In this document: positions 1-37,354 of the stretch, one piece after another
Numbering within the stretch: the first letter of the stretch is position 1
How the letters are laid out: every line of letters begins with the position of its first letter
Assembly (NCBI GenBank): GCA_900128565.1
Contig: LT635940.1
Coordinates: 1 to 37,354, forward strand
DNA from: Stramenopiles sp. TOSAG23-6
Lineage: Eukaryota
DNA length: 37,354 bases
Direction of reading: 5' to 3'
Notes under the pieces: generated by a model
What the model was told of the DNA's origin: nothing
The model's input: the letters and a program-made list of their open reading frames with translations, nothing else
Database searches by the model: none
Translations under genes and position numbers: made by a program

Positions 1-1
1 G

Positions 2-2894: not shown

Positions 2895-4427
2895 ATGATT
2901 TCAAGAAGTTTTAACGAATTACCGTCACACGGTATGCTCTTGTATCAGTCACACATCAAACCACAACCTGAAACAGTACAGGATCAAGTACAGAAAGAGC
3001 TTCGCAAAGCCCTAGGCGAATCTTTACCTCCAAATAAAGGTGATGCCAGTATACCTTTAGATGTTTTAAATTTATGCTCACGTTTACATCCATATAATTG
3101 GAAAGTTTCAAACCATTCGAAAGAACGTCTTGGAAAGCTTATAAGTCAAAACATATCTTCAGGTGTACGGAGTAGTGGAGATCGATTCCAAAATTGTCCA
3201 GATCCAGTTTTGCCAGGAACATTTATTCAGGGTGAAAATCATAGAAAAGTAGCCAAAATAAGGAAACATTTTTCTGGGATATTTCGTTCCACAGCTCCAG
3301 GTAAATTGAACGAAACGGGAGATACAAAACGCGATAAAGCTGGTAATACATCACCCATGATGCCAGATATTACTAGACCTAATTACACAATGATAAGAAA
3401 CAATATCCATCTCATGCAAACACCAGCAGAACTTGCAGTGCATGTTTTAAATCGACGAAATAAAGCTTTAGCAGCTGCAAAGGCCTCTGAACTTCGTTCA
3501 ATATATCCGGCACCTCACTATATTTACGATATGTCTAATACAATGGAAAATACAATGAAAGAAAGATATTTGAAAAACTCTTCACCCATACCGACATCAA
3601 TTTCAAATAATACACATAAAAAAAAACGGGTTAAGAGTTCTCGCTTGCATTATACTCCAGAGATTCGATTAATAAATAATATACCAAGGAATTTGATGCA
3701 TCGAAACATTTCTACTGCACAGCGTAGATATTCTTACAATATAAAGCATGGAAATAAAAGAAAAAAACAGGGGGGAAATATTCACAAAACAAACTCTTTA
3801 TCTTCATCCAAAGTCGAATCTAAACGTTCGCATTGTGAAGACACGAATTCTAAAAGTTCGGATTCAAATGATGTGAATTCTAATGGTGGGAAAATACACT
3901 TTCGAGTACTAGGAAATACTGGAATCTCACAAAGACAAAGTAAAAATACAAAAACAGGGTTTTTAATAAATCGTAGTAAGCACACAGAGGCTGGTTTTTA
4001 TAAAAAACGGACTAACATTCCTAGATCAAATAATCTTTCTCGCTGGGCATCAACACAACGACAACCATCGAATATTTTTCGCCCTTTATCACAAAGATCG
4101 ATCCGTCCATTCAGTCCTGCACCATGGCATCATGTAGGTTTTCATCATTTCAATTTCATTTGATGTAAACAAAAACTTTGCACCTAACATTTTTTTGTTT
4201 TAAAACATTTTTTTTTCACATTACATGTACGTTTTCAAAATTAATTTCNAANTTAGNTTTTTTTTTCGTACGAAATTTTGTACCTAACAAATTTTGACTA
4301 TACTTTTTTTTTCACATAACATGATACTTCTAGAGGTTATAGTCATCCAGATTTTCCGGATTTTGATTTTCAATTACAAGGAAGTACGAAAGCACTTAAT
4401 GTTTCTGTACATGGACAGCACGAATAA
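2895..4427 (+). CDS. Hypothetical basic protein, ~447 aa after splicing; exons 2895-4133 and 4323-4427
   Basis: The long ORF runs into two tandem repeat elements; removing 4134-4322 continues in frame (PWHH-DTSRGYSHPDF...GQHE*) to TAA at 4425-4427. Confidence 0.7.
4134..4226 (+). mobile_element. Introner-like non-canonical intron, copy 1 (93 nt, GT...AT), diverged
   Basis: cat|GTAGGTTTTCATC...CTTTGCACCTAAC...TTTTTCACATTACAT; homologous to the other copies. Confidence 0.8.
4227..4322 (+). mobile_element. Introner-like non-canonical intron, copy 2 (96 nt, GT...AT), directly abutting copy 1
   Basis: GTACGTTTTC...TTTCGTACGAAATTTTGTACCTAAC...TTTTTCACATAACAT|gat; contains three N bases. Confidence 0.85.
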
Positions 4428-11402: not shown

Positions 11403-11756
11403 TATTATTAATGGTAAATCCTTCTATAGAAACAATGATTATTCGCGAAACAAACACTTGCAGCCACACACCAGTCTGCAAACAAAAGAGATCAAATTAA
11501 AAGAGCAGCTTTCGTTTTGAAGGAGATCTCGTTTGTGTCTATTTTCGAAAAACGAGAGAGACGAGAGCAAGAGCAAATGCAAATGAGAATCTTAAAAAAG
11601 TACCGCGAAAAAAACTACACTTTTCAAAAAAATTGTTGTTTTTCGTGTGTCATCATATTATTTGCGTCACACGTGTCATTTCGATTCTTCTTTTTGCTAT
11701 TAAGTTGAACTTGAAGTTAAACTTGAACATACAAAATTTAATATATTACACTAATC

Positions 11757-19100: not shown

Positions 19101-19518
19101 ATAGTGGCCATTGATCAACTTCAAAAAGCGATCGATGTCGGTCGTTGTCGTCTCCAGGGTCATTCAGACGAACATTTGAAAGCGGTCCAAAAAATAAATT
19201 CACGTTGANGTATATGAATTCTTCTTTGTTTGGAACACTATAACTGCAGCAACCAGTAAATCTATGCATCATTTCTCGAAAACGTTCGTAATCAGCAATC
19301 GTCATTAAGTTGAAGGCAGCCCTTAGCGCTGGTCTAGGAATGAAATGATGCGCACTTTGTTCATCATCACTAAGTTTAGGTATTTTCAATTGGGACCCAT
19401 TTTGCCTTGGAGTAAACCAGTTCCCTTGGGCTTCAGGTGGAGCTGCTAATGCAGCAGATGAGCATGTAAAAACAGTAAACAGAGTCAGCACTAGTATTAA
19501 GTAATGTATGTCGACCAT
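16165..19518 (-). CDS. Large orphan protein (~1117 aa) with a probable signal peptide and a Lys-rich C-terminal tail
   Basis: Long uninterrupted ORF; hydrophobic MVDIHYLILVLTLFTVFTCSSAALA from ATG 19518; no domain recognised. Confidence 0.7.
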   Translation of the reverse strand: MVDIHYLILVLTLFTVFTCSSAALAAPPEAQGNWFTPRQNGSQLKIPKLSDDEQSAHHFIPRPALRAAFNLMTIADYERFREMMHRFTGCCSYSVPNKEEFIYXNVNLFFGPLSNVRLNDPGDDNDRHRSLFEVDQWPLSIAQKYPSAIEKMNKLWLAVKSALVIHLSCSVGKGNALWTSPYKENLTDFPQMKILFSSLEDALDEWQKVGVTIQFNRETAFEYNSDDWVCSESKDKSILWTLFELEAQSSSTSRKHSCGVLAKITEAPAHELKAAHNEKSVAGDREGSGNVFVTRKQYKGESNGAYIWRNESPHKFHYPAGYYLQESSITNGIAIRAKEETLMEAFETWHTLFRYKKKKSSLAAKFLRQKLSSIGEDFSDSALLRATQELHVVIQKLIGSPIDQCNGSKISDVLLMPQRFTDEHITQIASDRREEDDTLPAGDDTPGDDTPLDDIHAEPAVPAVPASAVMVDSGYQIGEENTTWDLHIMEKMKERVYEYYNDYSKNLQDFFVLSAVTFDSRVIKRKESPIHGAILKWGEEHYLVWEETMINIFFAVEMMNYTLTKQREILNSFQSNPIDAGVNIEYKERYANAWKNDMMNLHDFEALFELTKAGTDMEXKNMFQILITDDVELKEFQDSIQKVLRSVHNCMQIMRDFIAFTRQMEYKWVTGSLEHQHIPNRIARNILAARHINTLISENEVEVLHSEKKTRQFRSIPPLDERKYLIKSEGFHVTSVFHYHLRENSDYDLKVQFNVDDDPYMAAAFSAIQSVKDAGYKETDPVYENTVLTLMAQILPLIINYMSELPKDIQPNLKFADKWVVDGEDHPCDRYFGIQLVFGKSEKPTLPTNKELRDPVYICYNKRIDESGDVLSLYKDFLKGYMSEHDRLIFLTGLGRHVTPSIARGQKVTLGVSDRDAFTFDTKDKLKQVTTQANTFLSKIMTEAGESLSKQHQKDLLDKIIKNYKLRVALERVRCGKFHGEIGSLVQIFQFLSSVPEEDLMKYKQDVEQARTDEQRLEYLLSNLKEASHEELESLLRRNPLAQLPRSARVNPRARGQQSAEVGPGKLGKRGKPLTNKEKRALKRGEELASLQGKPKDEPKVPQKGKKGKKRGKKKKK

Positions 19519-19791
19519 TCTATATATATACTCCAACAATAAAAGACGTCGAATGATATATTCCAAGGTTCTGTGTATAATTTGAAATTTAAAACCGTTC
19601 GTCGTCCGCCGATACGGTATTTTATTTAATCGCATCCAGGAGCTGAAGCAGCTCTGGCGCTAGTACCGGGTATCCAAAATATTATATATCCGTTACACGA
19701 CACTATGACGACCAACAGCCAGTCAATCTGCAGTCAATCTTCTTTTAAACAAGGTTTTTTTTTGTCTCAAGAATGTATGAGTTAATATAGA

Positions 19792-20520
19792 ATGCCAACA
19801 CTTCGACGAACCTCCCAGTCCAAAAAGCAGTATGGAGAAGAAAACATATTTGGCCAACCCCAAAGTCTCGTCGTGGGGCAAGATATTTGTGTTGCTACAG
19901 GTCTTCCCTTGCCTGCTGATGCTATTCCGGGAGAGGATTGGGGAGTTATGCAAAGCGACTGAACTGGAAGGTTGCGGTGCGCCTATCCATCAAACTGTTT
20001 AACGAAAGAAGGTAATTACGGTTGTTCGAACCCTTCTTTGGATATTTATGGATGCAGAATTCACAGGTCAAAACGTTTGGAGTCCAAGTCAAATGATTCA
20101 GAATATCCCAGCCTTCCATACAAAAATAGCAATAATCGATCACTAAGCACCCACGAGCTTCTTCTCCAAAGTGGGTGGCTTCCAAACGTTTCTCTTAACT
20201 CTCCAACAAAGAAACGTAAAAGTCAAGTAGAAATTCCAATGAGTCAGTACTATCGTACAGAATTATATAAAAAACTTATAGATACGAAAAAGTCACGATC
20301 TGGTAGGATAATTATTCCGTCTACAAAACAAATTAACAATTCTATTCAGCGGATTCAGCAAAACGCAATTCGAAAAAGAAAGAGGTTAGTTAAAAAGACT
20401 TTAAAAAAGAAAAAACCAAGTGTCATTGGGGTAAATAGATCCATCAGGCACCCTCCTTTTATAGAAAACTCAAAAAATAATAATAATAAACGCCACAGGA
20501 AGAAGAGAAAGTCTAAATAA
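19792..20520 (+). CDS. Hypothetical basic protein with one in-frame TGA at 19960-19962 (recoded gene or pseudogene)
   Basis: ATG 19792 opens 56 codons, then TGA, then the same frame stays open to TAA 20518-20520. Confidence 0.45.
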
Positions 20521-21064
20521 TTGGCTACATTCCGAGGATAAATTGATAAATTGATAGAGGTATTATTTTCGTTGATGTATGAGCGACAATCCTTTCAAAA
20601 AGAATCGTATTACATACTGAGAAATTGTAAGATATTTAAATTTTAATTTTGTCATGTATTATTACTTATTTTATTATTTCGTTGTCAATCTCTAGAAAAA
20701 ATCTAAATCAAGACATTATTTTTTGTTTTTTCCCTCCTCTCATTCATCCCTATCATTTTATCACCTTCCCCGTCGTCATATATCTAAAAGGTTAAACTAC
20801 AAAAGATTTTTTACTCACACGCACAGCTTTCATATACATTTAGTCAATGCTCATGCTGAACATGCAATAAACATGTAATAAATCATTCATATTCTATTCA
20901 ATTCGTTATTCCATTTCCTTTTGCGTTTAATCATACTAAATACAAAGTAATTGAAAAATAATTCACTAGATCAATACATAATAAATTTGAAACACCATGT
21001 GCACAAATACAGTCTATTAAACTAAACAAATTAATCCAAGAACTTTTAAATGTTCTATGTCATA

Positions 21065-23914
21065 TTAACGCCACGCACCACCAGTAGATGAAGTGCGTTC
21101 ACCTCGTCGATCATCTTTTCGGTCACGGCGATTATCTCGAATCCGTCTTTCATTAGTTTCGCGATTAGAAGAATTACGACGTTCCTCATCACGACCTTCA
21201 CGAGAGTCTCCAGGCGATGCTGCTGGTGAACGAGCTTTGCGTGCAGCAAGAACTCGCGCGCGACGCGAAGCACGCTCCTTCTGTTCCGGGGTTTGCTCTC
21301 TTGCAAGCATACTCGCAAAAGAAGCTTTAACGCCCCATGTGCCAGTATTATCATTTGTTGTTTCATTATTATTCGTATCGCCTGCAGGTTTAATAGTATT
21401 TGCAACGACATCGTCAGAAGCACTGACTGAAATCGTATTTTCATCTTTCGCGTTCTTCTTTTTCGGAGATTTTACCTTTGAAACTTCGCCTTTCAAATGT
21501 GTAAAAGCTTTTTTCTTCGCATCCAAATAAGCAGCACCACTCACTTTCGAATTAGAAGAAGTTTCAGTCGTCTGCGAAGGATCACTAGCGGCAATCGATC
21601 GTGTTTTTTCCCACCCTCTAGGAGCGCGAGTTGATTTTGTACCAGTCGTTGTAGAATCGGTCTTTGAACTTAATTTAATAGAAGTCGTCTCTTTTCCTCC
21701 TTTTACTCCAGAAGATTTACTTTTCTTCTTTTCTGCGGACTTAGAAACCTTTCTGGTGGGTACCGAAGTATTAAGTTCGGACGCATTTTTGGAGCTGGTA
21801 TTCTTCAATAACGCAGCTGCGTATCTGTAATTTATATGCGGATATTAAAATAGATTCAATCGTAAGAATATGTTTGTATAGTAAATAGAGGGAAACATAA
21901 ACAAATCATATATTGTTATTCTGTTGTAAAACACTAGTACAATAATTACACTTCTTCAGACATGAAGATAAAATTGCTTCGTTTCGGAAGAAAATTATAC
22001 AAGTATAATGTATAGCATAGTACATGGTCCCTATTCTCAAAAGATACCATCAAAGGACATCACTCCTTATCAAAATATCTCAGATAGCAGGAAATACAAT
22101 CTAGCTCTTTTTCCTTATAAGCAAAAGCAATGGTTATGTGCTTCGTTATTACACAAAAGAAAGAGCAGGGAAATACACAAATGTGATTCATATGATAATA
22201 TAATTGTTAAAATAAATTGTACTTACCCTCCCCAAGCATTACGAGCTTTGTTGTTACTTCCATTCTTCAATTCTACGCCATTCGATTTGTTCTTGTCACC
22301 TGATTTTGATGACGCATTGACATTTTGTGCTCCTCCTTCCATCATTGACGTCATCATCGATGTGTAATCTGAACTTTCAGCACGGTCAACTCGAATAGGC
22401 TTACCCTTCAAAACTGCTTCATTCACTTGATCCATTGACAATGTACGCTGTCGATTAAGATACTCAGAATGAGGTTTGTCCATGACGATGTCTTTCGCCT
22501 GTTCTTTTAACAAATCTTTCGAAAACGATTTCGGAGGCGTGATTTCAGATTGTGGCATTTTACGTACAATATTTAGTAAATCTTTATGCTGGTAACGCTG
22601 AAATTGTCTCTGATATCCAGATTCTACACCTTGAGATGGAAGTGATGGGAAATCTGTTGCAGAATTGACAGCTGGAGCAGGAATTACAGTTTTTTTTGCA
22701 GAATCTTTCTTGTCCTGAGATTTTTTCTGATTATTTCTTTGTTTATTCTTCCCTTGGCCTTGCTTGCTATCTTTGTTTCCATCATTATTGTTCTTCTTAG
22801 ACTTCTTTCCCTGTTTATTTTGTTGCTTTACTTGCTGCTGATTGTGTTGCTTAGGTCGATTGCCGTGCTTATTTTGTCGCGAGTTTGGAAGTGCTCGACC
22901 ATTCGATTGGCCAGCAAAGTGTCCATTGTTTCCACCTCTTTGCTGTCGATGCTGTTGATTAAACGCGGGCTTTTGTTGGCCTTGTCCATTGTATTGACGC
23001 TGCTGAAAACGACCTGGAGGGCCTCCAAACTGTCGTTGCTGATTAGGATCAAAATGAACTCCTTGCTGTCTGAACATCATCATATTGTTCATTCCGACAG
23101 TGTTCCCATATGGACCACCATACATTTGACCTGGATAAAACATACCCATTGGAGCTATCATACCATACGGAGAGTAACCACGACCAGGAAATCCAGGCTG
23201 TTGTCTCACTATATTGTTCGCATCATTCTGAACTTTATCTCTGTTGTTCGAAGGAACAGCATCAGGTTGACCATTTGGAGAGTTATTACCATTTGACACA
23301 CCATTAGATTTATAAACGCTGCGAAGTAAGTTTTCACTCTTGAGACGCCCTTTAATCGCTTTGCCACCGATTTCTTTACCAGCTAACTTAGCTTGGAGTA
23401 GCGCATTTTTTGCACTTTCTTCGTCCTTCATGGTGACAAACCAAGTGTTACCCACGTCACTTCGGACTTCTTCAACAATACCGAATTCTGCGAATATTTG
23501 CTCAATTTCAACCTTTTCTGTGTTAGCCGGTACATCGCGCAATATGATTTTATTGCGCTTTGGCTTCGAAAAGGCTGGTTTTAGAGTTTGGCTTGCTTCA
23601 TCTAAAGTGACAATAGTCGAGTCTTTCACAGATTTGGCAATGAGAGCTACGTCGTTCGTTAACGCGCGCACTTTGCGGAATTGGGAAATCACGTAAATAG
23701 GAACTTGCATATCCGCATTCATCTGCGATACAAGGTGTGCATCGACGGACAAATTGGCACGCGAGAAATAGAATTCTACTTGTTTCTTTAGTGCAGCTAA
23801 CAGTGCAGCACCTTCCAACTTTGTGGTGGGTTGCGCGATGCCGTTTTTATCATAAGAATTTATTTGAGGCTGCTGCTCAAGTACAGCACCACCATCTTGT
23901 TGCTGCGGCTGCAT
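21065..23914 (-). CDS. La-related RNA-binding protein (LARP4-like); exons 23914-22227 and 21824-21065
   Basis: La motif LKKQVEFYFSRANL, adjacent RRM (IILRDVP...NTWFVTM), Q/N-rich region, DFPSL; the intron joins AWGG-YAAALLKN in frame. Confidence 0.85.
21825..22226 (-). other. Canonical GT-AG intron (402 nt)
   Basis: GTAAGT...TTACAG on the minus strand; restores frame between ORFs 22223..23929 and 21065..21808. Confidence 0.85.
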
Positions 23915-24262
23915 TGCAAAACTATTCAACGTTGCCGGTGGTTATTGCGTTCTTTCTGCCAAGCGCCCAGCTGCTTGGTCGTATCGCGAGTACACGAGGT
24001 GTGTATGTACACAAAAGAAGAGACAACAACAACCACCGCAACAACATCGTGGTCAGATTGTCGTGTTTTCGAACGCGCACTGAATAATTTCTACATTACC
24101 GGGTTCCAATATGGAACAAACCTGCTCGTTGTGTTTTTAATTTTGTTTTTATTTATTTTATTTCTTTTGAAAATGTTTTCATTTCATTAAATTTTAAATA
24201 ATTTCATATTATAAAACCGAGTATGAAAAATAGAGTCACAATTCCATTGAGTAATCATTCTT

Positions 24263-25565
24263 TTATTTTTCTAGTAATTCTTTTGAAAACATAGCGTTCT
24301 GTTTATCATCATTCGCAGTTGCCACTTGGGAACAATCTCCAATGATATAGTTCAGTTTTTTTTTTGATTCTACAGCAATCGGATGGTCAAAAATACAAAT
24401 AGGTAACTGATAAGTATCATTGTAAAAATACTTTCGTTTTACACCTTTCCAAACCTTTTTATCCTGGACTTCAGCAATTGGACAGGGTATATAAGTGGTA
24501 GTAAAACCAAGAGCATCAAGCTCCTGTTGAGCTATTTGAGCGTACACATGTATTTTGGAAAAATATTTCAATTGTTTTTTCGTTAGGTACAAAATTTCGT
24601 ACGAAAAAAAAAATCGATTTTTTTGTTAAAAAAAAAATAAAACATCCACCATGAAAAATAATGTTATCTGGACAAAGTCCATTAAAAAATGAATAACATC
24701 CACCAGGTCTTAAAATCCTAGGCAATTTATGGTGAAACTCTGATTGCTCCCCATAATTCTCTCCATATGTATCAAAATATATACCATCAAAACTTCTATT
24801 ATCAATTTTTTCCATCATATCCTGCCAACGACCATGTAAAATCGTCACTCCTGGTTTCTTATCCCAACCCTCTTTTAACATATAAGCATAGACTTGAGGA
24901 TGGGCTTCAATGATTGTGTGACTACGTGGCTTGCGATCCTGAATATAATTATCAATTATTCCCATTCCAAAACCTACATTTAAAACATCTGCTCCTCGTT
25001 TTTGTTCCCGATTTTTACCAAGGCTAGTGATAACGTCAGCAGAAGCCTCCATCAATGGGCTTTCCCAAGACATCATAACACCGTCTTTGTCCGAGTCTAA
25101 TAGTTGTTTTCCGTCCTCAGTATATTTTACATCTCGTTTAAGATAATCATTGCTATACTTGTTTGGTTCCGCCTTTAAGGTCTCTTTAGAAGTAGACTCG
25201 TTCGTGTGCTCACCAGGTCTGGTACTCATGGAACTTTTTTTCTTCAAGCACGCTAATAAAAGCTCAGAAGTTACCCCAGCATTAACGATACGATCGACAC
25301 ATTTTTGATGTCCAGCTTCTAATGCATAATCACCAGCACATTTATACTGGCGGTCCACTGCGTTCCATGGAGCACCTCTATAGAGCAACTCATTCATAAC
25401 CTCCAAATGACCATGTTGAGCTGCAGCCATTAAAACTGAGGTACCCGTTTCACTTCGCTGATAAAATTGCTCGGCTCCGTCCTTCAGTAACTGACGAACT
25501 AATTTAAAATTACCTGTTACAGCTGCATCCCATAACTGCTCATTTAATACATTGATTTCTGTCAT
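24263..25565 (-). CDS. RMT2: Protein arginine N-methyltransferase RMT2 (ankyrin + GAMT-like domain), 400 aa; exons 25565-24648 and 24547-24263
   Basis: Ankyrin repeats, GAPWNAVD, VMMSWESPLM, VLNVGFGMGIID, HTIIEAHPQV, FDGIYFDTY, YSFFNGLCPDNIIFHG-VYAQI, WKGVKRKYF. Confidence 0.9.
24548..24647 (-). mobile_element. Introner-like non-canonical intron, copy 3 (100 nt, GG...AT)
   Basis: ggt|GGATGTTTTATTT...TTTCGTACGAAATTTTGTACCTAAC...TTTTCCAAAATACAT|gtg; nearly identical to 30181-30279; removal restores the RMT2 frame. Confidence 0.9.
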
Positions 25566-25924
25566 GATATACTATTAAATTTCTTCTTCTACTATCGTAG
25601 TTATAGTACCTATACGTAGTACAGTTGTGGCAAAAAAAGACGCTTGAAAAGAAATTTCATGAGACTGGCTCCAAAATATTAGCTAGGGTTGGGGGTTATA
25701 TTAGCTACTATGGTATACCGTAGTCAGAAAGAAAACTCGAACAAACACGAAAAATCAACGCGCTGCAACAACAACAACAATTTCATATATCCTATTTGGT
25801 ATAATAGTTTTACTTTCGGCTCTCATCTAAGTTGATTAATATATTATATAATAAAGTGAATGTAACAATTTCTTAGGTTCATGAAAATTCATGGAACACG
25901 TAACAAAATACTTGAAGTGTTACA

Positions 25925-25963
25925 ATTTTTTTAATGGATTTTTTTAATGGATTTTTTTAATGG
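25925..25963 (+). repeat. 13-bp tandem repeat x3 (ATTTTTTTAATGG)
   Basis: Seen directly, just downstream of the transporter stop codon. Confidence 0.8.
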
Positions 25964-26006
25964 AATGAAAGAAAAAAAGTTAATGAAAAAATTGTAATAG
26001 TCCATA

Positions 26007-27374
26007 TCAAGATCCCTTCACTTCCTTATTTGCACCATACGCAAAAATTAGAAGTCCAGTACATACAACGGACAATCCACCCCAACAGTAGATTGGAGAA
26101 ATTCCAGCCTCACCTTTCCCTCCCATAATCCATGGAATTGACAGAAAAAAGTTTTGTAGGGGTAGTGAAAATGCACTCGTTAAAAAACTAATGAGAGCTC
26201 CGTTACCACCAGTAATACCTGCATGTGTACCATAATTCACTAATATCAAAGCACCAACGATAAACGCAGCACCTAAAGGTGAAAATTGTAATACAAGTGC
26301 AAGTGATTGCTGACAATGCACATTTTTTGATGAGAACAGACACTTTGCTCCTTTACTATAGTCATTAGAAAAATGTTCTTGAAGACCAATGAATCCGCTA
26401 TTTGTTAGCACATATGTACTCTCTACAGCAATATTGACAGGTACTGATACACTATTCACTAAAGCAACAAGTAACGAAATCCGCATAAGAACTCCTGGAA
26501 CACTTCGCCTAGCTTCTTGTTCAGCCCGGCGACGTAAACGTTGACTACGAGCTACAGCTCTACTCGAATCAACAGTTTCATCCATTAAACCATCGCTTTC
26601 TACATCGCTAGTATCTAAATTACGCACTGATGCAACCACTGCCTCCGCAGTTACCCAAGCTGAACTAGTAGAAGCTGCTAAATTAGCTTCTGCATCATCA
26701 ATCTCTGCTGCAATACTTTCTTTTTCAAATGCAGATTCCACCAAGACAAAAAATAAAGCTTGTGGAATGGTACTCAAAATGTAAACAATTACCCATATGA
26801 TATCAATATGATTTAATGAATTCAACTGCGAAGAAGAAAACACAGAAACTGCAACACCAACACAAATGATGAATGGCCCTAATAGCATCATTTTTGTATA
26901 GTACTCAGAAGGGCATCCTCGAATAATCCACGCAATCAATAAAGTAAAAGGTATAACAGATTGACCTGCGACAACAAGTATATTTGAAAATTCGTTATCT
27001 AACCGATCAATACAAAGAATCATCAGAGTATTTTGTAATCCATTCAAACCACCAAGTAAAAGTATTGTTTTCCTATGAAGTAGAAGTCCCCTAGTTGCAT
27101 GTAATGCGGATATTTTTAAGGACGTTGCTTTTGATATACGGTAGTGCACAAAAGGAATTAATAAAAATGCAAATACGAGGCACACCAGAATAATTGACAC
27201 TGTATTAAGAGTGTTGACAAAGAATGGAAATGACTTCAAAGCATGAAGCTCCTTGTACATCCAAATAGTACTAATAACGGAAACAATTACATATAAGACA
27301 GACGAAACTATGAGAGCAAAGTTTCCAGACGGTACCGAATTTGATGAAGAGTTTCCTAGCAAAGAAGAATGCAT
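26007..27374 (-). CDS. CRT-like (drug/metabolite superfamily) membrane transporter
   Basis: About 10 hydrophobic segments; GQSVIPFTLL, STIPQAL...ESAF, GAKCLF, SAFSLPLQNFFLSIPW resemble the CRT/CLT family. Confidence 0.7.
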   Translation of the reverse strand: MHSSLLGNSSSNSVPSGNFALIVSSVLYVIVSVISTIWMYKELHALKSFPFFVNTLNTVSIILVCLVFAFLLIPFVHYRISKATSLKISALHATRGLLLHRKTILLLGGLNGLQNTLMILCIDRLDNEFSNILVVAGQSVIPFTLLIAWIIRGCPSEYYTKMMLLGPFIICVGVAVSVFSSSQLNSLNHIDIIWVIVYILSTIPQALFFVLVESAFEKESIAAEIDDAEANLAASTSSAWVTAEAVVASVRNLDTSDVESDGLMDETVDSSRAVARSQRLRRRAEQEARRSVPGVLMRISLLVALVNSVSVPVNIAVESTYVLTNSGFIGLQEHFSNDYSKGAKCLFSSKNVHCQQSLALVLQFSPLGAAFIVGALILVNYGTHAGITGGNGALISFLTSAFSLPLQNFFLSIPWIMGGKGEAGISPIYCWGGLSVVCTGLLIFAYGANKEVKGS

Positions 27375-27970
27375 TGTATATCTGTGAAAATATCTATGAA
27401 GAAGAAGTCATACTTTAAAATTGAGCACGAAGTCGAAGTCGCAAAGTGCAAAAACCGACTTTTGTTTTGACCGGGGCTTTTGTGTTGACCTTTCGTTTTT
27501 TTTATTTGAAAATCATGTGTTTTTTTTCTTACATTAAAATTTGTCGAGAAAAGCGAGAAAAGATTATAAAATGTCAAAATTATAGAAAAAAGTACTTGTA
27601 TAATATTGCATATAGCCAATACTGTAACTTTAGTTCAAGCATAATAAAAACCACTGGCAACAATACAGGAAATTGCTTTCGATTAATTATGGAATGTTCT
27701 ATTGAAAAGGTAAAAATTTTTGTGTGTTGATTGATAAAAGATTTAAATAAATGTGATTATTATGTTTGGTTATATTTATATAGATTTTTGTAAAAGAAAT
27801 GTTGTTCTATTAAAAACACCTATCAATCATGTAAAGCATTGATTAAAACCTATGGCTCATGAAAGGTGTGTGTGTTTTTAACCAAACAGTAGACTCAAAG
27901 TGGGGACTCTCATCTCAGCGCAAGTAAAACACGACTTGTCACGAAATCCGACGTTTTCACTCACCTGGAG

Positions 27971-28651
27971 TTAGACTTTATATTCCGTACTCGCGAGCCA
28001 AGATTGATACAAGTCCTTATCATCCCTATAATTTTTAGGAGCCTTAGGATCTTCTTCGAGCTGCTGCTGTTGTCTGGCAAAATCCCGCAGTTGTTTGAAA
28101 GACAATGTACGCGCTGTCTTTTCTGCTACGTCTGCATTGTCGCCAAGTTTGTTCAATCCGAATTGAGTAGCTAGGCGTTGTCGTGCTTGTAGCATTTTCA
28201 TGTGAGTTACCAATTCTTCTTCCAAAGAGATCCTCCGTCGGCTTAGCTGATCGCTAAAACGTTCATTTTCAATACCCCACCCTTCTACGAGAACCCTCAT
28301 CATGGCACTAAGTAGTGGCTGGAATTCCAATCGAACACGTTCAATAAGAGTTGTTGGCGCAAGTGCCGCATTTTCAAGAGGTTTGGGCATACGACCGAAC
28401 TGTTCAAGGTCCGAAGGGCTAACGGGATAACGCATAAGACCATGCCGTTCATTTCCTGGTATTTTCCGAACAGCAACAAAACCGTCCACTTCGTCGTCCG
28501 TTGGTTGCACCTCCGGTTCTGGAGCCAAAGCGCCGCCTCCCAATCCAAGGCTTTCCTGTAATCCCCGGATGTATTTCATGGCTGATACGTTATTGAAACA
28601 TGTTACAAGCATACTGATCATGATAAGTGTTACTGATTTCATATTTGTCAT
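27971..28651 (-). CDS. Hypothetical protein with a probable signal peptide
   Basis: 226 aa ORF with a hydrophobic N-terminus (SVTLIMISMLVTCFNNVSA). Confidence 0.65.
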   Translation of the reverse strand: MTNMKSVTLIMISMLVTCFNNVSAMKYIRGLQESLGLGGGALAPEPEVQPTDDEVDGFVAVRKIPGNERHGLMRYPVSPSDLEQFGRMPKPLENAALAPTTLIERVRLEFQPLLSAMMRVLVEGWGIENERFSDQLSRRRISLEEELVTHMKMLQARQRLATQFGLNKLGDNADVAEKTARTLSFKQLRDFARQQQQLEEDPKAPKNYRDDKDLYQSWLASTEYKV

Positions 28652-28911
28652 TGTGGATATTGTTAAAAATGCCGTAAAATGTTTCCACTTGTAGATACCT
28701 TAACTCATGAACTGGACACGAACANACACCAATAAATACAAAACTTTAAACGGTTCAGTCAATTGTTACCCGGTACCCACGAAATCGTGTCAAAAGAAAA
28801 CAAAAATTCAGCGTGACGAAACCTCGTGTAGACTGTGGCTTACTTACAACACTTTCACCTTTCCATTACCTTTTTCTCAAGGTGGTAAAGTGAATTGCCG
28901 TCGTGCTTAGA

Positions 28912-31900
28912 ATGACAAATACCCCTCGTGGTACTCAGGCGCGTTTTGGTAGTAGTGGCTATGAAAAGTCATTATACGGGCGAAAAAACTATTCTTTTGG
29001 AGACCAGAAGAAAAAGCTCGTCTATCATGAGGACCGACCTTCACGAATAGCGTGTGTGAAATTTGGTTTGCTGTCTGGTCTAGAAATGGCGCGTATGTCT
29101 GAGATGCATGTATGTTCGAGCGAGCTTTATCAGCTTTCAACTCGTGAGCCCAGCCGTAATGGTTGCATAGATAGACGTCTAGGTGTCTCTGATAAGCGAA
29201 GTAAGTGTGAAACATGCGGTAAAAATTTAGCAGATTGCATTGGTCACTTTGGTCACATACAGCTCGCTCTCCCAGTGTTTCATATAGGATATTTTAACAC
29301 CATTATCAAAGTGCTTCAAAACATATGCAAAACTTGCTCTCGTACGCTCCTCGATGATAAAGAAAGAACATCATATCTTGCTCAAATGAGATCAAAATCC
29401 ACACATGTTTTAAGAAAACAACAAATAATTAAAAAGATCACAGCTCGATGTCGTCGTGTAACTCGGTGTCCTCACTGTGGTGCAATCAACGGCCCTGTAA
29501 AAAAGATAGCAGGTGCTCGTGGATTACGTGTTATTCATGAAATATTTAAAGTTAAGCAAGCTGTAGAACTAAAGCAGGAGTTTCGTGAAGAATTCGAGGA
29601 GGCTTGTCAAGCGAATCCAGAAATTGAACAACATATTAACAAAGCTCAACATGATCTTGACCCTGCGTATGTATATAACTTATTCAAAACCATTAAAGAC
29701 CACGAATTGGATCTATTTTGGTTGTCTCCTGAACTATCTAGACCAGAGAATTTATTACTCACACATATTTTAGTGCCCCCCGTGTGTATAAGACCTTCCG
29801 TCCAGATGATGGCTGGTGCATCCAATGAAGATGATTTGACCATGGCTTTGAGAGGTATAATAGAAGCTAATCAAGAACTTCAGTTTCATTTAGAAAAAGG
29901 TGCTGCAACAAAACATGTTGTTGAAGCGTGGGACCATTTATCTATGCAAACAGCCCAATATATTAACGGGGCATTACCCGGTTTACCTCCTGCTGTACGA
30001 AAAAGTATAAAACCTATCCGAGGCCTGTGCCAAAGACTCAAAGGTAAACAAGGCCGTTTTCGAGGCAATCTTTCTGGTAAACGAGTAGATTTTTCTGGTC
30101 GAACAGTCATTTCTCCTGATCCTAATTTGCAAATTGACCAAGTAGCCATTCCAAGGCGTGTAGCGATTCGATTGACCTATGTATGTTTTATTTTTTTTTT
30201 AACAAAAAAATCGAGTTTTTTTTTCGTACGAAATTTTGTACCTAACGTTTTTTTTTTGAAATATTTTTCCAAAATACATCCAGAACGAGTCAATAATCGA
30301 AATATTAAAAAAATGAGAGCTGCCGTTCTAAATGGTGAACTTAACTGGCCTGGTGCAAATTTTGTAAGAAAGAAAGGCAAACGTCCAATATCATTGTTGT
30401 ATGCAGATAAAAAGCGAACTGCTAAAGATCTTAAAATTGGTGATATTGTTGAACGTCATTTAATTGATGGTGATGTAGTTTTGTTTAATCGCCAACCTTC
30501 CCTTCATAAGATGTCAATTATGTCTCATTGTGTAAAGGTAATGCCATGGAGAACTTTTCGATTTAATGAATGTGTATGCTCTCCATATAATGCCGATTTT
30601 GATGGTGATGAGATGAATATTCATGTGCGTTTTTATCATTCATTCCAAATTTAAATGTTTTTTTTTCATAGATAATTTTGTACCTAACAAATTTGAAATT
30701 TTTGAAATATTTTTTATTACACATGTTCCACAAACTGAAGAAGCGCGTGCTGAAGCATTTACTCTGATGAATGTGAAAAGAAATTTAATTACACCTAAAA
30801 ATGGTGAGCCTCTAGTAACGGCAACACAAGATTTTCTCACGGCGTCATTTTTAATGACTGCGCGTGACAATTTTCTTGATCGGGATGCGATGTGTCAAGC
30901 TTGTTCCCATATGCAAGACGCTGGCTTTCACGTTGTCTTACCTCCACCTACGATTGTTGCACCAGTTACATTATGGACGGGTAAACAATTATGGTCAGTT
31001 TTATTACGTGCGTGTATCGGAAAATCCAAAGAATTGAACATTATTGCCAGAGGCAAATGTTTTGTAAGTCCGAATGAACGCGTGGGGTATCAAGACTTGG
31101 ATAATTGTTTATGCCCAAAAGATGGTTGGGTAATTGTTCGTAATTGTGAAGTTTTATGTGGCAGACTAGGAAAGGGGATTTTAGGTGGGAAGAAACAAGG
31201 AATTATTTTCACTATTGTTCGTGATCATAGTGTTGAAGCTGCTGCAATGATGATGGTAATGATGACAAAATGTGTCACACGCTGGCTGACAGGTCACGGA
31301 TTTTCTATTGGAATCGATGACGTTTCACCAACACAGCAACTGACAAAGCGTAAAGCGAAAGTATTGGAAGAGAATTTTGAAAAATGTCGTGTTAAAATTG
31401 ATAAATACAAAGCAGGAACGCTGCAAATGAAGCCAGGTTGTAACATGGATGAGTCGCTTGAAGCTGATGTAAAAGGTATACTTAGTGCTGTTCGTGAAGA
31501 AATGGGTTCTATGTTGATGGCAACTCTGCCTAATTATAATTCACCTTTTATTATGGCTACATGTGGTTCTAAAGGATCTGCCTTAAATATATGTCAGATG
31601 GTTGCGTGTGTTGGTCAGCAGGTAGTAAATGGTGAACGTGCTCCTGAAGGTTTTGTTCAACGTACTTTACCGCATTTTGGTATTAATGCTCGCGAACCTG
31701 AGGCAAAAGGTTTTGTAGCTAGTTCATTTTATACCGGACTCGATGCAATGGAGTTTTTCTTTCATACAATGGGGGGTCGAGAAGGTCTTGTCGATACTGC
31801 AGTAAAGACAGCTGAAACAGGATATATGTATGTTTTATTTTTTTTTCAAATTCGATTTTTTTTTTTTGAAAATTTTGTACCTAACGAATTTTTTTCTGAA

Positions 31901-34003
31901 ATATTTTTCCAAAATACATGCAACGTCGTTTAATGAAAGCTTTAGAAGATTTATCTTTACAATACGATGGTACAGTGCGAAGCAGTACCAAACAAGTAGT
32001 GCAATTTACATATGGTGATGATGGTCTGAATGTTTGTTTCCATCATGAATTTTTTATCTAATTTTTTTCATACGAAATTTTGTACCTAACAAACATTTTG
32101 AATTTTTTTTAAATATTTTTTCACAACACATCCATCCTGTATGGAAGATAATGAACGACCTGTAGATTTGAATCGTTTATTACGAATTGTTAGTGCTGAG
32201 TTTTCCGTTGGGCAAAAGTTTTCTTTAAGTGGACCAGGGATGTCACCAGAACAAATTTCTGCATCAGCAGAGTCGTTTATTGCATCACCAAAATTAAATA
32301 TATTACCCCACATTCGTAAATTTGTGGAAGAAATTAGAGAATTTAGCAAAAATCTGTGTGATAAAGTGAACAAAGGTGTACTGTCCTGCGGTTTACAAAA
32401 TTTTAATAATAGTAAAAGTTCAAAGAAAAAGAGTAAATCAAAACAAACGAAACCATCGTGGGGCAGTTGGCCTACTGTGTCAAAAATAAGAGCCGATTGG
32501 CAGCACGAACTATCTGCATTTGAGGCATCATCAAAATGGCGCGCACAAGCTGCAGATAAAACAAAACAAGCTTGGATGGAAGAAGGATCTCGAATCTTTG
32601 AGAACGTACACGCGATTCATACGGAAGTATTAGATGAAGTATGGAAACGTGCATTAATTAAGTATACTATGGCTACAATGGAATCAGGTGAGGCAGTTGG
32701 TGCTGTTGCTGCTCAAAGTATTGGTGAACCTGGTACACAAATGACATTGAAGACATTTCATTTTGCTGGTGTTGCTAGTATGAATGTCACTTTAGGTGTT
32801 CCTCGTATTAAGGAAATAATCAATGCTACAAAAAATATATCAACCCCAATTATTACAGCAGAATTGCAATCTGATCAAAGTGAAATTGCTGCGAGAATTG
32901 TGAAAGCTCAAATTGAAAAAACTACTTTAGGTGAAGTATCAAAATCTATGAAGGAAGTGATTGGTCCTGGTTTGTATTGTATTGAAATTACTCTAGACAT
33001 GGAAGCGATCCGTAAATTGTATCTACAAGTGGATGCATTCTCTGTTTGTCAAGCAATTATAAATGATTCTAAACTAAAATTGAAAGCTCAACACTTAGAG
33101 CGTGAAGGTGATGACGTCATTCGTATATATACACCATCGGAAATTGTGAGGATGGCACGCGCAAAAACGCATGGTCCAAAGCCTCCTGTCAACGGTAATC
33201 GTAATAGTCAATATTTTAATAGTCAAATATTGAAAGAGCATTTACCAAGTGTCATAGTTCAAGGTATTAAAGATGTTACTCGTGCTGTTATTAACAAAAT
33301 TGATGCTACAGCAGGAAATCGAGCTCGTTATAATTTGCTTGTTGAAGGAAACAATATGCTTGATGTCTTAGGTACAGATGGTATAGCTGGTACAAAAACT
33401 ACAAGTAATCATATCATGGAAGTTGAAATTACTCTTGGTATCGAAGCGGCGCGAACAAAAATTATTCATGAAATTAAGTATACATACGGCAGTTATGGAA
33501 TCACCGTCGATGAACGTCATTTGATGCTTCTTGCAGATGTTATGACGTATAAAGGTGAAGTTCTTGGTATTACTCGATTTGGTATAGCAAAAATGAAAGA
33601 TAGTGTTCTAATGCTTGCATCTTTTGAAAAAACGAGTGATCATTTATTTGATGCAGCTGTACATGCGAGAGAAGATGAGATTGAAGGTGTATCAGAATGC
33701 ATAATCATGGGTATTCCAATGCCAGTCGGTACCGGCCTTGCCAAGTTAGTCCATAACCCAGAAAGGTGTGCGTTAGATAGTATGCCATACCCGGTAATGA
33801 GAGATGTTACACCATTAACTATTGGTGCTAGAAATCAGAAGTTATGTGCTTATAAAGCTAAAGAAGAGGAGTACCATAGAAATAGACGACCAGACTTATT
33901 ACTCAATATGGATAAAGATGATTTGATGTTGAACGCTCATCACAATGAATCGAAAAATATTAAAATTGAAAACACAATTGTAAAGGAAGAACCAGTACTA
34001 TAA
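28912..34003 (+). CDS. RPC1: DNA-directed RNA polymerase III largest subunit, 1566 aa; exons 28912-30180, 30280-30624, 30725-31827, 31920-32031, 32132-34003
   Basis: CETC...[105 protein letters not shown]; no heptad CTD. Exon lengths sum to 4701 nt, a multiple of 3. Confidence 0.95.
30181..30279 (+). mobile_element. Introner-like non-canonical intron, copy 4 (99 nt, GT...AT, in frame and stop-free)
   Basis: tat|GTATGTTTT...AAAATACAT|cca; splits the conserved LTY-PERV. Confidence 0.95.
30625..30724 (+). mobile_element. Introner-like non-canonical intron, copy 5 (100 nt, GT...AT)
   Basis: cat|GTGCGTTTT...TTTTGTACCTAAC...TTACACAT|gtt; splits [17 protein letters not shown]. Confidence 0.95.
31828..31919 (+). 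mobile_element. Introner-like non-canonical intron, copy 6 (92 nt, GT...AT)
   Basis: at|GTATGTTTT...AAAATACAT|g; splits the bridge helix [17 protein letters not shown]. Confidence 0.95.
32032..32131 (+). mobile_element. Introner-like non-canonical intron, copy 7 (100 nt, GT...AT)
   Basis: aat|GTTTGTTTCCATCATG...TTTTGTACCTAAC...TTCACAACACAT|cca; splits [15 protein letters not shown]. Confidence 0.95.
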
Positions 34004-34094
34004 TGTGTGCAATTATTTAATTATATTTATAAATGTACATCGAACGATAATGTGTGCAATTATTTAATTATATTTATAAATGTACATCGAACGA
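34001..34094 (+). repeat. Perfect 47-bp tandem duplication at the convergent ends of RPC1 and the methyltransferase
   Basis: TAATGTGTGCAATTATTTAATTATATTTATAAATGTACATCGAACGA at 34001-34047 and again at 34048-34094. Confidence 0.95.
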
Positions 34095-35000
34095 ATCGTC
34101 ATCACATGCATTTTTTACATGTTCAGGAGTAATCCAACCTAATAAGCTCTTCCCTTGTTTAAATTCCTCAGTGCGGCGTAAAATCGGGCTAATAATTTCA
34201 GGTGCATATATATCAAGTTCCTCGCACAAATCTGCAAATGCACAGCCTGAAAGAGAATATGGTATATTTGTTTGTACTCCTTCAGTGTCTTTTAAATCAT
34301 TTTTCTTTTTATAACCCCAAAATAGTAAATTTGGATTAATGGCTAATATCATTACTTTATCAAAAACTTCTAGATATCTATCCGTGACAATTTTCATCAT
34401 TTCCCGATTTGCAATGACATTGCACAAACATGATCCTCCAGGTTCAAGTACCGAATATGCTGCATACAGAGTTGTCATCTTCACCACACTTGCTGGTGGT
34501 AATTCAAGAGGAGCATTATCTATTGCGTTTTCTGCAGCTATATCGAGTATAATCAAATTATATCGGTGTCTTGAATGAACATGTCTATTCATTCTCTTCC
34601 AATCGCAACCAAAAGAGGTAGGAAAAGATGTTTTTGATTTTTTCGAACTTTCCGAACTCTTTGAAATTATATCAATTTCATTTTCTACAGCAGAGGCTGC
34701 ATCTTTCAAAAAGGAAACACCACATTGACAGATTACTTTAATTTGTGATCCAACAGCCATACCAAAAAAGTTGACAGCAGCATAAATGACTTCAGGCGAT
34801 AGATCTACAACATTTATTTGACAAAACGGAAAAGATGCCGCAATTGCATTCGGTACAGCCCCACCACCACATCCAAGAACAGCCACTCGTAATTGCTCTT
34901 TTTCTTCATACCTACAGGAATTATCTTTCGTCAATGCACCATGTTGTTCTAATAATGTCACGATACTAAGAGCAAATGCCTGGTTAATTTCGAATGGTGC
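34074..35000 (-). CDS. Class I SAM-dependent methyltransferase / spermidine-synthase-like domain (METTL13 C-terminal-like); terminal exon, own 5' exons not evident
   Basis: VAVLGCGGGAVP, VVDLSPEVIYAAVNFFG, YNLIILD, LEPGGSCLCNV; no in-frame ATG before the SAM-binding motif. Confidence 0.75.
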   Translation of the reverse strand, partial: APFEINQAFALSIVTLLEQHGALTKDNSCRYEEKEQLRVAVLGCGGGAVPNAIAASFPFCQINVVDLSPEVIYAAVNFFGMAVGSQIKVICQCGVSFLKDAASAVENEIDIISKSSESSKKSKTSFPTSFGCDWKRMNRHVHSRHRYNLIILDIAAENAIDNAPLELPPASVVKMTTLYAAYSVLEPGGSCLCNVIANREMMKIVTDRYLEVFDKVMILAINPNLLFWGYKKKNDLKDTEGVQTNIPYSLSGCAFADLCEELDIYAPEIISPILRRTEEFKQGKSLLGWITPEHVKNACDDDSFDVHL

Positions 35001-35090
35001 ATGTATTTTGGAAAAATATTTCAAAAAAAATCGTTAGGTACAAAATTTACTATAAAACAAAATTCGAATTTAAAAAAAAATAAAACATAC
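35001..35090 (-). mobile_element. Introner-like non-canonical intron, copy 8 (90 nt, GT...AT)
   Basis: agt|GTATGTTTTATTT...TTTTGTACCTAAC...TTTTCCAAAATACAT|gca. Confidence 0.9.
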
Positions 35091-36679
35091 ACTCATTTGG
35101 AAAATTCTCGTAATCAAACCATTGTCCCAATTCACAAAATTTGTATTGTGAAAAAATATTTTACATACGAAATTCGTTAGGTACAAAATTTCAATGAAAA
35201 AATATAAATTCGAAATTCATGATGAAAACATACTGTTTGTGTTCTTGTGGGTAATTATATGTACTCCATGACCCAGTGTATGTTGTTTTCGCAGACATTG
35301 CAGCAATCGCAGCGGATTTATGTATTGTGAAAAAATATTTCAAAAAAAAACGTTAGGTACGAAATTTCGTACGAAAAAAACCTTAAATAAGAAATTCATA
35401 TAAAACGTACATCATCTGCTACTTTCAGAATTCGATCTTTAATCGCAACGCTTCCTTCTACAAATAAAGGCATAATTGTAGATTTTAACCACTCACAGCA
35501 GGTACATGATGGTGCCATTTTGGCGTAAATATACCATTGCATGAAAGGGCCAAAGACGACGAAAATGACTAAACAATTTAAAAGCATTATAGGAGGCATC
35601 CACATCAAAACTTTACTACGATTATTGTTTGGATCATATACACGTTCAAGTTGTCCATGGAAATCTAGATTTGGGCGGAGTTCAAATTCAGGTTCGTATG
35701 GATTAGGAATCTCTTCGTTGACACCTTGACGAGGTAAATTCCATCGATGACAAATGACATGACAATATCTTGTCCAATATTGTTTTAGTAAAGGTCCCCA
35801 AACACACGTAATCAATATACCTGTTATAGTTAATAACATCACATAAGCATTCCAATGAAAAAGAGAAACCACCCATAGACATGCACCAGTAATTCCTATA
35901 GGTACTATAAGAATTGTGTAGAATTGCACAAATGCAAAGTATAAAGCTACACGTTCGCCAAAATGATTTCGGATTTCGTCAACAAGCCAATCCGCACGAG
36001 CCCGAGCAACAGATGGAAATAAAGTACAATTTTTATTCATATACATTTTATGTAGCCACTTATTCCAGATTTGATCTTGTAGCGGATACATTGCTTTTAT
36101 ACCCAATTCAGGGCAAGAGTGTGCTAAAATTTCAGATTCACTGCCGACAACTGTGCCTAGTGCACGGCGTATAATTCTATCAGTTAAACGCAATTCCTCA
36201 GCATGAGAAAATGTCTGATGTTCAACTTCACCCATTGAACTATCGGTATCTATAATTCCGTATTTAATACGTCTGGCGCGTTCTACTCGCCTTCTCTCGT
36301 GCCTCAAAAGATTATGATCATCAATGCGCCGTTTACCTTTTCGACCGGTAGCCGATAAAAGGACTGTCAGTGTGTGTGCTGTTTCAACAGTTTTTTCTAA
36401 GAGACCGATATGAATTCCAGCTCTACACATTGTTTGTAAGGTCAAAATATGTCGTTCGATAGTATCATGGTCGATATATATATGAGCATCCTGTCCATCT
36501 TTCTGTTTTAGTTTCGACTTTGGTACACAATCTAAAATTAGCGCTATACTATAGCGTAGCCTGTCTTTTGGTGAAGTATCTAAAATATCAAAAAGAGAAC
36601 CGCTGCCGATTTTGCCTACATCAGTTGTTGGTGGCTTCTTTTGTGAAGCCAAAGACATTCCACGCAAAATTTTTGGCAT
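35091..36679 (-). CDS. Anoctamin/TMEM16-like protein, N-terminal half only; exons 36679-35411, 35319-35234, 35140-35091
   Basis: YPLQD, VDEIRNHFGERVALYFAFVQFYT, TM1-TM2, WTRY...RWNL, TM3; the C-terminal TM bundle is absent. Confidence 0.75.
35141..35233 (-). mobile_element. Introner-like non-canonical intron, copy 9 (93 nt, GT...AA)
   Basis: ca|GTATGTTTTCATCATG...TTTTGTACCTAAC...TTCACAATACAA|a; removal reads HKQFCELGQW in frame. Confidence 0.85.
35320..35410 (-). mobile_element. Introner-like non-canonical intron, copy 10 (91 nt, GT...AT)
   Basis: gat|GTACGTTTTATATG...TTTCGTACGAAATTTCGTACCTAAC...TTCACAATACAT|aaa. Confidence 0.9.
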
Positions 36680-36993
36680 TTTAAATGTTCCAGATGAAAT
36701 TACGACATATTAGTTCATTCTTCGTGGTTGTTCTTTTGAATGCCCGGAACTTCAAGAGAGAATATAACTAATAGCTACTTGTTAACGTTACGTGTTAGCG
36801 TTACTATGTAGACTAGACGACATAGGTCGGACATAAAAAACCGTTTCATCGGTGTTTTTCTCGGTTTCGTATATTTTTTCTAAGTCACACACAAGTCATC
36901 ATAGTGCGTAAACCTACTATAGGCAAGGTGTCATTGATATATATATATATTCTATATACTTAAAATGGATTAGTTTTATGAATAAATCGAAAG

Positions 36994-37255
36994 ATGAGTA
37001 GACGTGGGCTAGAAAAAGATAGATTACCAGCAATTAGAAGAGGAGATCACCATCCCCGATCCCAAGCAACCAAAGAAGAATGGTCTCAGTTTCTACGGAA
37101 AAGGTACAACAGAAAAAGTACAAAGAATGGTGTTCGAAATGCATTAATGGACACCAATAGAACTACAGAGCAACTTCGTGTTCTTTCTATATGGCTGCGA
37201 GGAAGTAGTATTTGTCCAGATAGCGTCAGCGACAAAGCTATCTTGAAAGTTGCTT
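36994..37255 (+). CDS. First exon of a hypothetical protein (3'-partial)
   Basis: ATG-initiated ORF that runs into element copy 11. Confidence 0.55.
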
Positions 37256-37354
37256 GTACATTTTATATGAATTTCTAATTTATTTTATTTTTGGTTTTCA
37301 TACGAAATTTCGTACCTAACGATTTTTTTGTTGAAATATTTTTTCACAATACTT
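37256..37354 (+). mobile_element. Introner-like non-canonical intron, copy 11 (99 nt if complete, GT...TT), ending at the window edge
   Basis: tt|GTACATTTTATATG...TTCATACGAAATTTCGTACCTAAC...TTCACAATACTT. Confidence 0.85.

Follow-up and report, generated by a model that had tools for sequence, protein, structure and literature searches.

Putative GT-AT introners with a two-base target duplication and a U1 snRNA predicted to match their donors in Stramenopiles sp. TOSAG23-6

The insert studied here raises two questions: by what route did it enter its host gene, and at which of several equivalent pairs of splice sites is it removed? It lies in the gene for the largest subunit of RNA polymerase III (RPC1), within a 37,354-nt stretch of the TOSAG23-6 assembly (the window), and it is flanked by duplicated AT at 30179–30180 and 30278–30279. 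When retained, the insert stays in frame without a stop, and the 33 codons that it adds split residues that are adjacent in aligned yeast and human RPC1; the exon frames of the gene join once its four such copies are taken out. The 11 copies in the window (Table 1) are members of one non-autonomous introner family, AT-rich and about 98 nt long, that occupies unrelated host genes. We consider it highly probable, on genomic evidence, that these are mobile GT-AT introners that duplicate two target bases and are excised by the major spliceosome from a donor matched by the host U1 snRNA.

Table 1. Introner copies and associated features in the window
Feature	Position	Strand	Ends and context
First copy of head-to-tail pair	4134..4226	+	zero exon between the two copies
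Second copy of head-to-tail pair	4227..4322	+	at terminal AT of first copy
Introner copy in RMT2-type arginine methyltransferase gene	24548..24647	-	GG...AT, exon end GT
Host gene RPC1 (RNA polymerase III largest subunit)	28912..34003	+	five exons
Focal introner copy, RPC1 intron 1	30181..30279	+	GT...AT, 99 nt, phase 0
Family core	30226..30246	+	16-nt near-palindrome running into ACCTAAC, putative branch-point motif
Introner copy, RPC1 intron 2 (copy 5 of the initial annotation)	30625..30724	+	GT...AT, 100 nt
Introner copy, RPC1 intron 3	31828..31919	+	GT...AT, 92 nt, phase 2
Introner copy, RPC1 intron 4	32032..32131	+	GT...AT, 100 nt
Introner copy	35001..35090	-	GT...AT, preceding exon end GT (1-nt match)
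Introner copy	35141..35233	-	GT...AA, preceding exon end CA
Introner copy	35320..35410	-	GT...AT
Introner copy	37256..37354	+	GT...TT, preceding exon end TT, reaches window edge

The core motif of the family has 8,766 exact matches in the 21.1-Mb assembly, against one for a reversed control pattern; because the assembly, fragmented into 6,236 contigs, is partly duplicated, this figure is not a copy number. The source genome appears to be a MAST-3-like stramenopile: two host proteins are 86–93% identical to EukProt records labelled GSMAST32, a label that we read in this sense, and the closest relatives of the host DDX3 include oomycete proteins. A contig from seawater DNA run X3 (record 7) spans 56 nt of the copy at 32032–32131 together with the following exon, so this junction exists outside the TOSAG23-6 assembly, and a metagenome pattern scan yielded one contig (L139), which carries a typical AT/AT copy.

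The ends of the copies bear directly on the mode of insertion. In the window, our recount agrees with the initial annotation that the base preceding the donor G equals the last base of the insert in all 11 copies (T in ten, A in one), that two bases match in eight (AT in seven and TT in one, where the TT copy at 37256–37354 has an unbounded 3′ end that stops at the window edge and the copy at 4227–4322 has the end of its predecessor, 4134–4226, as its left flank), and that G+5/T+6 is present in ten. For a larger sample, 371 distinct core matches were taken from 111 partly overlapping stretches (0.92 Mb, window included). Both ends were called in 209; the other 162 were dropped before counting (92 with weak 5′ ends, 54 with weak 3′ ends, 8 nested, and 8 with N). 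Termini among the 209 are GT-AT (160), GT-TT (10), GT-AG (10), GT-GT (8), and other (21). The 5′ matrix was built without exon positions and the 3′ matrix without the last two intron bases, and comparison of the flanks is therefore not circular.

Exon and intron ends are strongly associated across these copies. Exon and intron share their final base in 192/209 (null 175.9, P < 0.001) and their second-last base in 172/209 (null 147.8, P < 0.001). Both bases match in 164 copies, where about 20 are expected from base composition, and 143 show an AT/AT duplication. Positions −3 and +1 have no significant mutual information among the 209 copies, with identity at −3 marginal (P = 0.02). Because only the last two intron bases covary with the last two exon bases, the target duplication is, statistically, 2 nt long; it is mostly AT, usually of a (C)AT^G site, and C (35%) and G (51%) predominate in its flanks, with A at −3 in 28% and T at +1 in 20%. 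The earlier estimate of a 1–2-nt duplication is thus real in substance and refined to two bases, and the covariation supports the earlier idea of a small non-autonomous element whose 5′ terminus serves as donor while the target gives the last intron bases. Flank-end identity exceeded base composition over genomic copies, as that idea had anticipated, while the terminal complementarity proposed along with it stayed at chance.

The exceptions to AT follow the same rule, in part. Among the 37 copies without an AT end, 21 repeat the exon end (1.9 expected from exon-end frequencies). Conversely, of the 56 copies whose exon ends in a dinucleotide other than AT, 21 repeat both of its bases, yet 29 have AT at the intron end; in copies with two different dinucleotides, AT occupies the intron end 29 times and the exon end 10 times. 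Imperfect duplication persists in the least diverged third of copies (7 vs 6). AT ends at non-AT targets may reflect either fast selection toward an AT acceptor or a donor element that sometimes supplies AT. Head-to-tail pairs with no exon between them, at 4134–4322 in the window and at L003:1443, fit insertion into the duplicated AT of an earlier copy; since removal of the first copy of such a pair recreates a full donor, recursive splicing is possible.

Statistically, then, a pair of target bases, in most cases the AT of (C)AT^G, is duplicated on insertion. We propose that this happens through a staggered cut by a predicted DNA transposase; the 5′ end of the element would provide the GT donor and its 3′ end plus the duplicated AT would provide the acceptor. 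The terminal inverted repeat described earlier exists inside the duplication, with a length of only 3–5 nt (at least three perfect pairs in 129/209 copies and at least four in 110/209) and without compensatory changes; by itself, such a repeat does not show the DDE substrate that had been suggested. The "compensated" G+3/C−5 combination of the copy at 30625, which fell below the 3′-end threshold and is left out of the 209, is present but a one-off: none of the five G+3 copies in the set has C−5, and all four C−5 copies carry A+3. A profile search for one transposase family, PF13359, gave five matches on two elements. One is a complete Harbinger-type transposon (L120:502-3610, on G000:C2432) with two converging genes, 28-nt terminal repeats, and a TAA duplication, whose termini are unlike introner ends; for the second, which lies on a contig of 2.5 kb, terminal repeats were not seen. 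A long transposase-encoding element with introner termini, for which the initial annotation had suggested a search, was not found among these PF13359 matches. Separately, a short introner-core motif sits between the two genes of the Harbinger-type element.

The same introns in the same register might alternatively have spread at the RNA level, either by reverse splicing or through a circular intermediate, or by a recombinase with a 2-nt overlap, instead of a cut-and-paste transposase. This is unlikely, although several observations favor it: the frame-assigned copies all lie on the sense strand, the terminal repeat is short and uncompensated, about half of the non-AT targets end in the family AT as if it were donor-supplied, and the PF13359 matches include no matching transposase. 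However, plain reverse splicing predicts no duplication, in conflict with the 21/37 non-AT ends that copy the exon end, and sense orientation is equally expected from selection. Transposition with a 2-nt duplication remains our preferred route.

The strongest new element of our analysis is the matched U1 snRNA. A U1 gene at G000:C1146:349-508 gives a full-length Rfam match (E = 6.6e-13), and its 5′ arm reads AAACGUACAUG where the Rfam consensus is AUACUUACCUG, a difference at three positions (U2A, U5G, and C9A). All three changes match the introner donor CAT|GTAYGTTT: A2 faces intron T+7 (99%), G5 faces C/T+4 (96%), and A9 faces exon T−1 (90%). Over the 209 copies, the host U1 forms on average 9.2 of 11 Watson-Crick pairs versus 6.96 of 11 for the consensus arm, figures that are inflated at +1 to +8, and not at −3 to −1, because GT donors served as the seed of the donor matrix. 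Exon position −1 pairs in 90% of copies with the host U1 versus 3% with a canonical U1, and the median duplex energy is −9.5 kcal/mol versus −1.9. From this complementarity we infer co-adaptation, in which a host U1 of predicted expression was altered to match introner donors, each of the three substitutions putatively restoring pairing. An origin of the U1 arm as a reversed introner fragment was also considered and rejected, as the neighboring sequence is unlike the family.

A less favorable interpretation of this U1 is that it is a minor or dead paralogue and that a canonical U1 works with loosened protein factors, as in Fritillaria. The candidate scores 54.1 bits, under the Rfam cut-off of 69.5, the loops of stems I and II are altered, and a canonical U1 could be absent merely because the assembly is fragmented (6,236 contigs); in this incomplete assembly no second U1 sequence was found, the single sequence lying on two identical contigs. 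Yet the fold and Sm site are intact, the gene is clustered with ordinary U5, U2, and U4 genes (U5-U2-U1-U4, head to tail in one 640-bp cluster, L071:9-645 on G000:C1146, with U6 elsewhere), and the donor logo agrees with every one of the three arm changes. We regard this interpretation as quite improbable and retain the matched U1.

Several lines of evidence address the splice register. Excision in the GT register leaves the own-strand frame open in 195/209 copies, compared with 31 for the antisense strand, 51 and 41 when the cut is displaced by 1 or 2 nt, and 38 for unspliced copies (intron phases 86/56/50; 17 unassigned). Homologues of three genes were compared at the junctions, and three of three favor GT. 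Among signal peptide peptidase homologues the Ala of the GT register occurs in 97/120 and the slid Val and Met in none; among RMT2 homologues, where the copy at 24548–24647 tests the 2-nt slide only, Gly (GT register) occurs in 79/120 versus Asp (2-nt slide) in 2/120; and among homologues of an MFSD5-type transporter Gly (GT register) occurs in 96 of the 112 aligned, of 149 tried. Furthermore, sliding by 2 nt introduces stop codons into 2 of the 41 informative copies (none in the GT register or the other slide), and the slid registers pair with the host U1 at 2.6 and 3.4 of 11. Because U1 pairing, homologue residues, and stop codons agree, the register is not really ambiguous, contrary to the initial annotation, whose leaning toward GT is nevertheless borne out; GT...AT is supported as the register in which the major spliceosome is predicted to remove the copies. 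Public protein models P0121, P0241, and P0361 deviate from homologous proteins at the tested junctions or beyond them, errors that GT-AT introns would explain.

In an alternative raised by the initial annotation, the insert would be a TG...CA element that entered at A^T, duplicated nothing, and is spliced one base further left. This can be written for 9 of 11 window copies, a count that we reproduce, and the 110 copies with at least four perfect terminal pairs are compatible with it. It is nevertheless largely refuted, and we consider it very improbable: position −1 and the second-last base do not covary (complementarity in 169/209, null 169.8), TT/TT, GT/GT, and AG/AG copies break the pattern and, like CT/CT pairs, obey the duplication instead, U1 pairing falls to just 2.6/11 in the 1-nt-slid register, and homologues reject the slid residue in both genes able to distinguish it. 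Least probable of all are AT...AC introns (a 2-nt slide) of a minor spliceosome, which are writable for most copies and could draw on a branch motif, CCTAAC, that we take to resemble the minor-type branch, but whose donor is presumably unlike the minor consensus, whose slide yields stops and wrong residues, and for which U12 and U6atac, the two components searched, gave no match at E ≤ 1 in the incomplete assembly.

Apart from U1, the major-spliceosome components compared are ordinary. The donor pairs with U1, and U2, U4, U5, U6, and Prp8 are all present. The branch-pairing region of U2, the U5 loop, and the U6 ACAGAGA box equal the Rfam consensus, and Prp8 is about as in human across the 501 residues compared; with U2, U5, U6, and this stretch of Prp8 ordinary, catalysis is probably unchanged and specificity moved. 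A U2AF2-like gene is present at G000:C433 (L142, 20300-21700), and the other U2AF2 candidate examined, of 18 rows, is most like hnRNP A. U2AF1 was absent from the 16 CCCH matches of a weak search, which is no evidence of loss. Both RNA-binding repeats of the U2AF2-like protein match the first-repeat part of the model.

At the 3′ end, the family departs from the usual AG of major-type introns. The acceptor is YAT in 171/209 copies, with exact CAT|G in 66/209, and AG in 10/209 (6/153 with the strict end pattern versus 130 for AT); genome-wide, 155 strict matches end in AG, which suggests that AG is still acceptable. The branch motif, with a putative branch A, lies at a median of 38 nt before the intron end. 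An AG occurs between this A and the end in 58/209 copies (in 49 it lies no more than 15 nt from the branch), and at least one earlier YAT is passed over in 194/209. Neither the first AG nor the first YAT therefore suffices to define the end. A conserved 13-nt terminal block is the likely acceptor signal, and we suggest that the acceptor is probably set by this block together with the strong branch motif, rather than by scanning for the first AG. Directly before the branch motif, a 16-nt near-palindrome (30226–30241 in the window and in most copies) forms a 6-bp hairpin in two of the five copies folded; it may act as a hairpin or could be a protein-binding site on DNA. Structured ends of the euglenid kind were rejected, as the five copies tested are no more stably folded than their shuffled versions (z −0.47 to 1.10).

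A rough scan for core-less introns gave 19 candidates, and the real-looking ones seem to be decayed family members. Two apparent copies (L047 and L095) have both ends and no branch motif, and represent either real deletions or assembly collapse between T runs. In the window, 582–695 (+) resembles a GT-AG intron with a family-like donor and no core motif. Long conserved genes without introns, including a Prp8 frame of 2,021 codons (L138, G000:C84) and a P-type ATPase (window 7290–11423), suggest that few older introns remain.

We also compared all contigs of two metatranscriptomes from one sample (X7 and X9) and two seawater DNA runs from one study (X3 and X4) with window positions 17400–37354. 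Among the 15 of 278 joints shown, none was a clean copy removal in the RNA or DNA runs, and none was an empty site in X3 or X4. The RNA pieces listed among 32 of the 16,118 pieces of all runs include none that bridges an introner junction. X7 and X9, which may contain DNA, hold introner sequence with foreign flanks.

Few features of splicing are as strongly conserved as the near-universal 3′ AG and the 5′ arm of U1. AT acceptors (in Fritillaria) and changes in the U1 arm (in Archamoebae) are each known separately, and in TOSAG23-6 both occur together, tied to one mobile family. In the accessible text on Fritillaria borealis and F. pellucida (PMC13326754), transposon-derived introns have 3′ AT acceptors in 34% and 44% of introns. 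Like that system, TOSAG23-6 combines AT acceptors at genome scale with a YAY triplet that recurs ahead of the donor and at the end of the intron, and with predicted removal by the major spliceosome. The main classes of F. borealis start with AG, unlike the GT donors retained here. As far as the same portion goes, F. borealis has two U1 versions with identical 5′ ends, a dedicated U1 was not the route taken, and the authors credit U2AF duplication and m6A, whereas in TOSAG23-6 the U1 arm itself is altered. A U1 arm fitted to an atypical donor is also described for Entamoeba and Mastigamoeba balamuthi in the consulted part of bioRxiv 10.1101/2022.06.08.495308, where Mastigamoeba carries the G5 variant and Entamoeba includes A2; the changes given there face intron positions only, with none facing exon −1, and that part describes no AT acceptor or introner link.

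Among introners, the family resembles those of Micromonas, Aureococcus, dinoflagellates, and other lineages in comprising thousands of short, similar, mostly non-autonomous introns (PMC11282704; PMC12130899, in part) and in taking one splice site from the element and the other from the target duplication (PMC11282704). It differs from the Micromonas model in co-opting AT with a 2-nt duplication in place of AG with 3 nt (PMC11282704), and the available sections of PMC12130899 list AG and AC as the usual introner 3′ sites. ISL2EU elements (PHIS superfamily) likewise duplicate a 2-nt AT; their target in the excerpt of PMC4482050 is A|AT|T, unlike the C and G that mostly flank introners, and no element of their THAP/HTH/DDE plus YqaJ type was seen in TOSAG23-6. 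Our literature search, with supplements and most subscription journals lying outside it, found no report of GT-AT introns or of an altered U1 in MAST lineages.

Through target duplication, exon and intron come to end in the same dinucleotide, and this offers a concrete model of a transposon reshaping a spliceosomal RNA of its host. The canonical CAG|G junction motif would have become CAT|G at both intron ends. A tentative extension, to which we give a modest chance, is that C9A re-reads both ends, as U1 positions 8–11 are CAUG, complementary to the exon end and to the acceptor CAT|G. If true, a transposon invasion would have driven a change in the splice code that is encoded in an snRNA and that turned AG acceptors into AT, and the system would provide a natural test of pairing between U1 and the 3′ splice site, which Reich et al. 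(1992) reportedly proposed. Two old questions become testable: whether U1 contacts the acceptor, and whether protosplice motifs reflect preferred insertion sites or pairing with U1. Relative to the canonical donor (A/C)AG|GU and acceptor (C,U)AG|G given in the part of PMC3488318 consulted, T replaces G before the junction at both ends of the introners.

Two further features of the assembly were observed. Tandem pairs of the telomere-type hexamer CCCTAA occur 88 times in 0.84 Mb versus 0–2 for nine other arrangements of the same letters (e.g., L090:3777, L065:8651, and L100:6465); many appear to fall inside coding regions, a few stand in place of part of an introner 5′ end, and they may be telomerase-type repair scars. 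Finally, a perfect inverted repeat at the contig start (window 1–55 and 3544–3598) and the self-inverted or duplicated contigs C2, C4, and C13/C14 are probably products of amplification or assembly artefacts.
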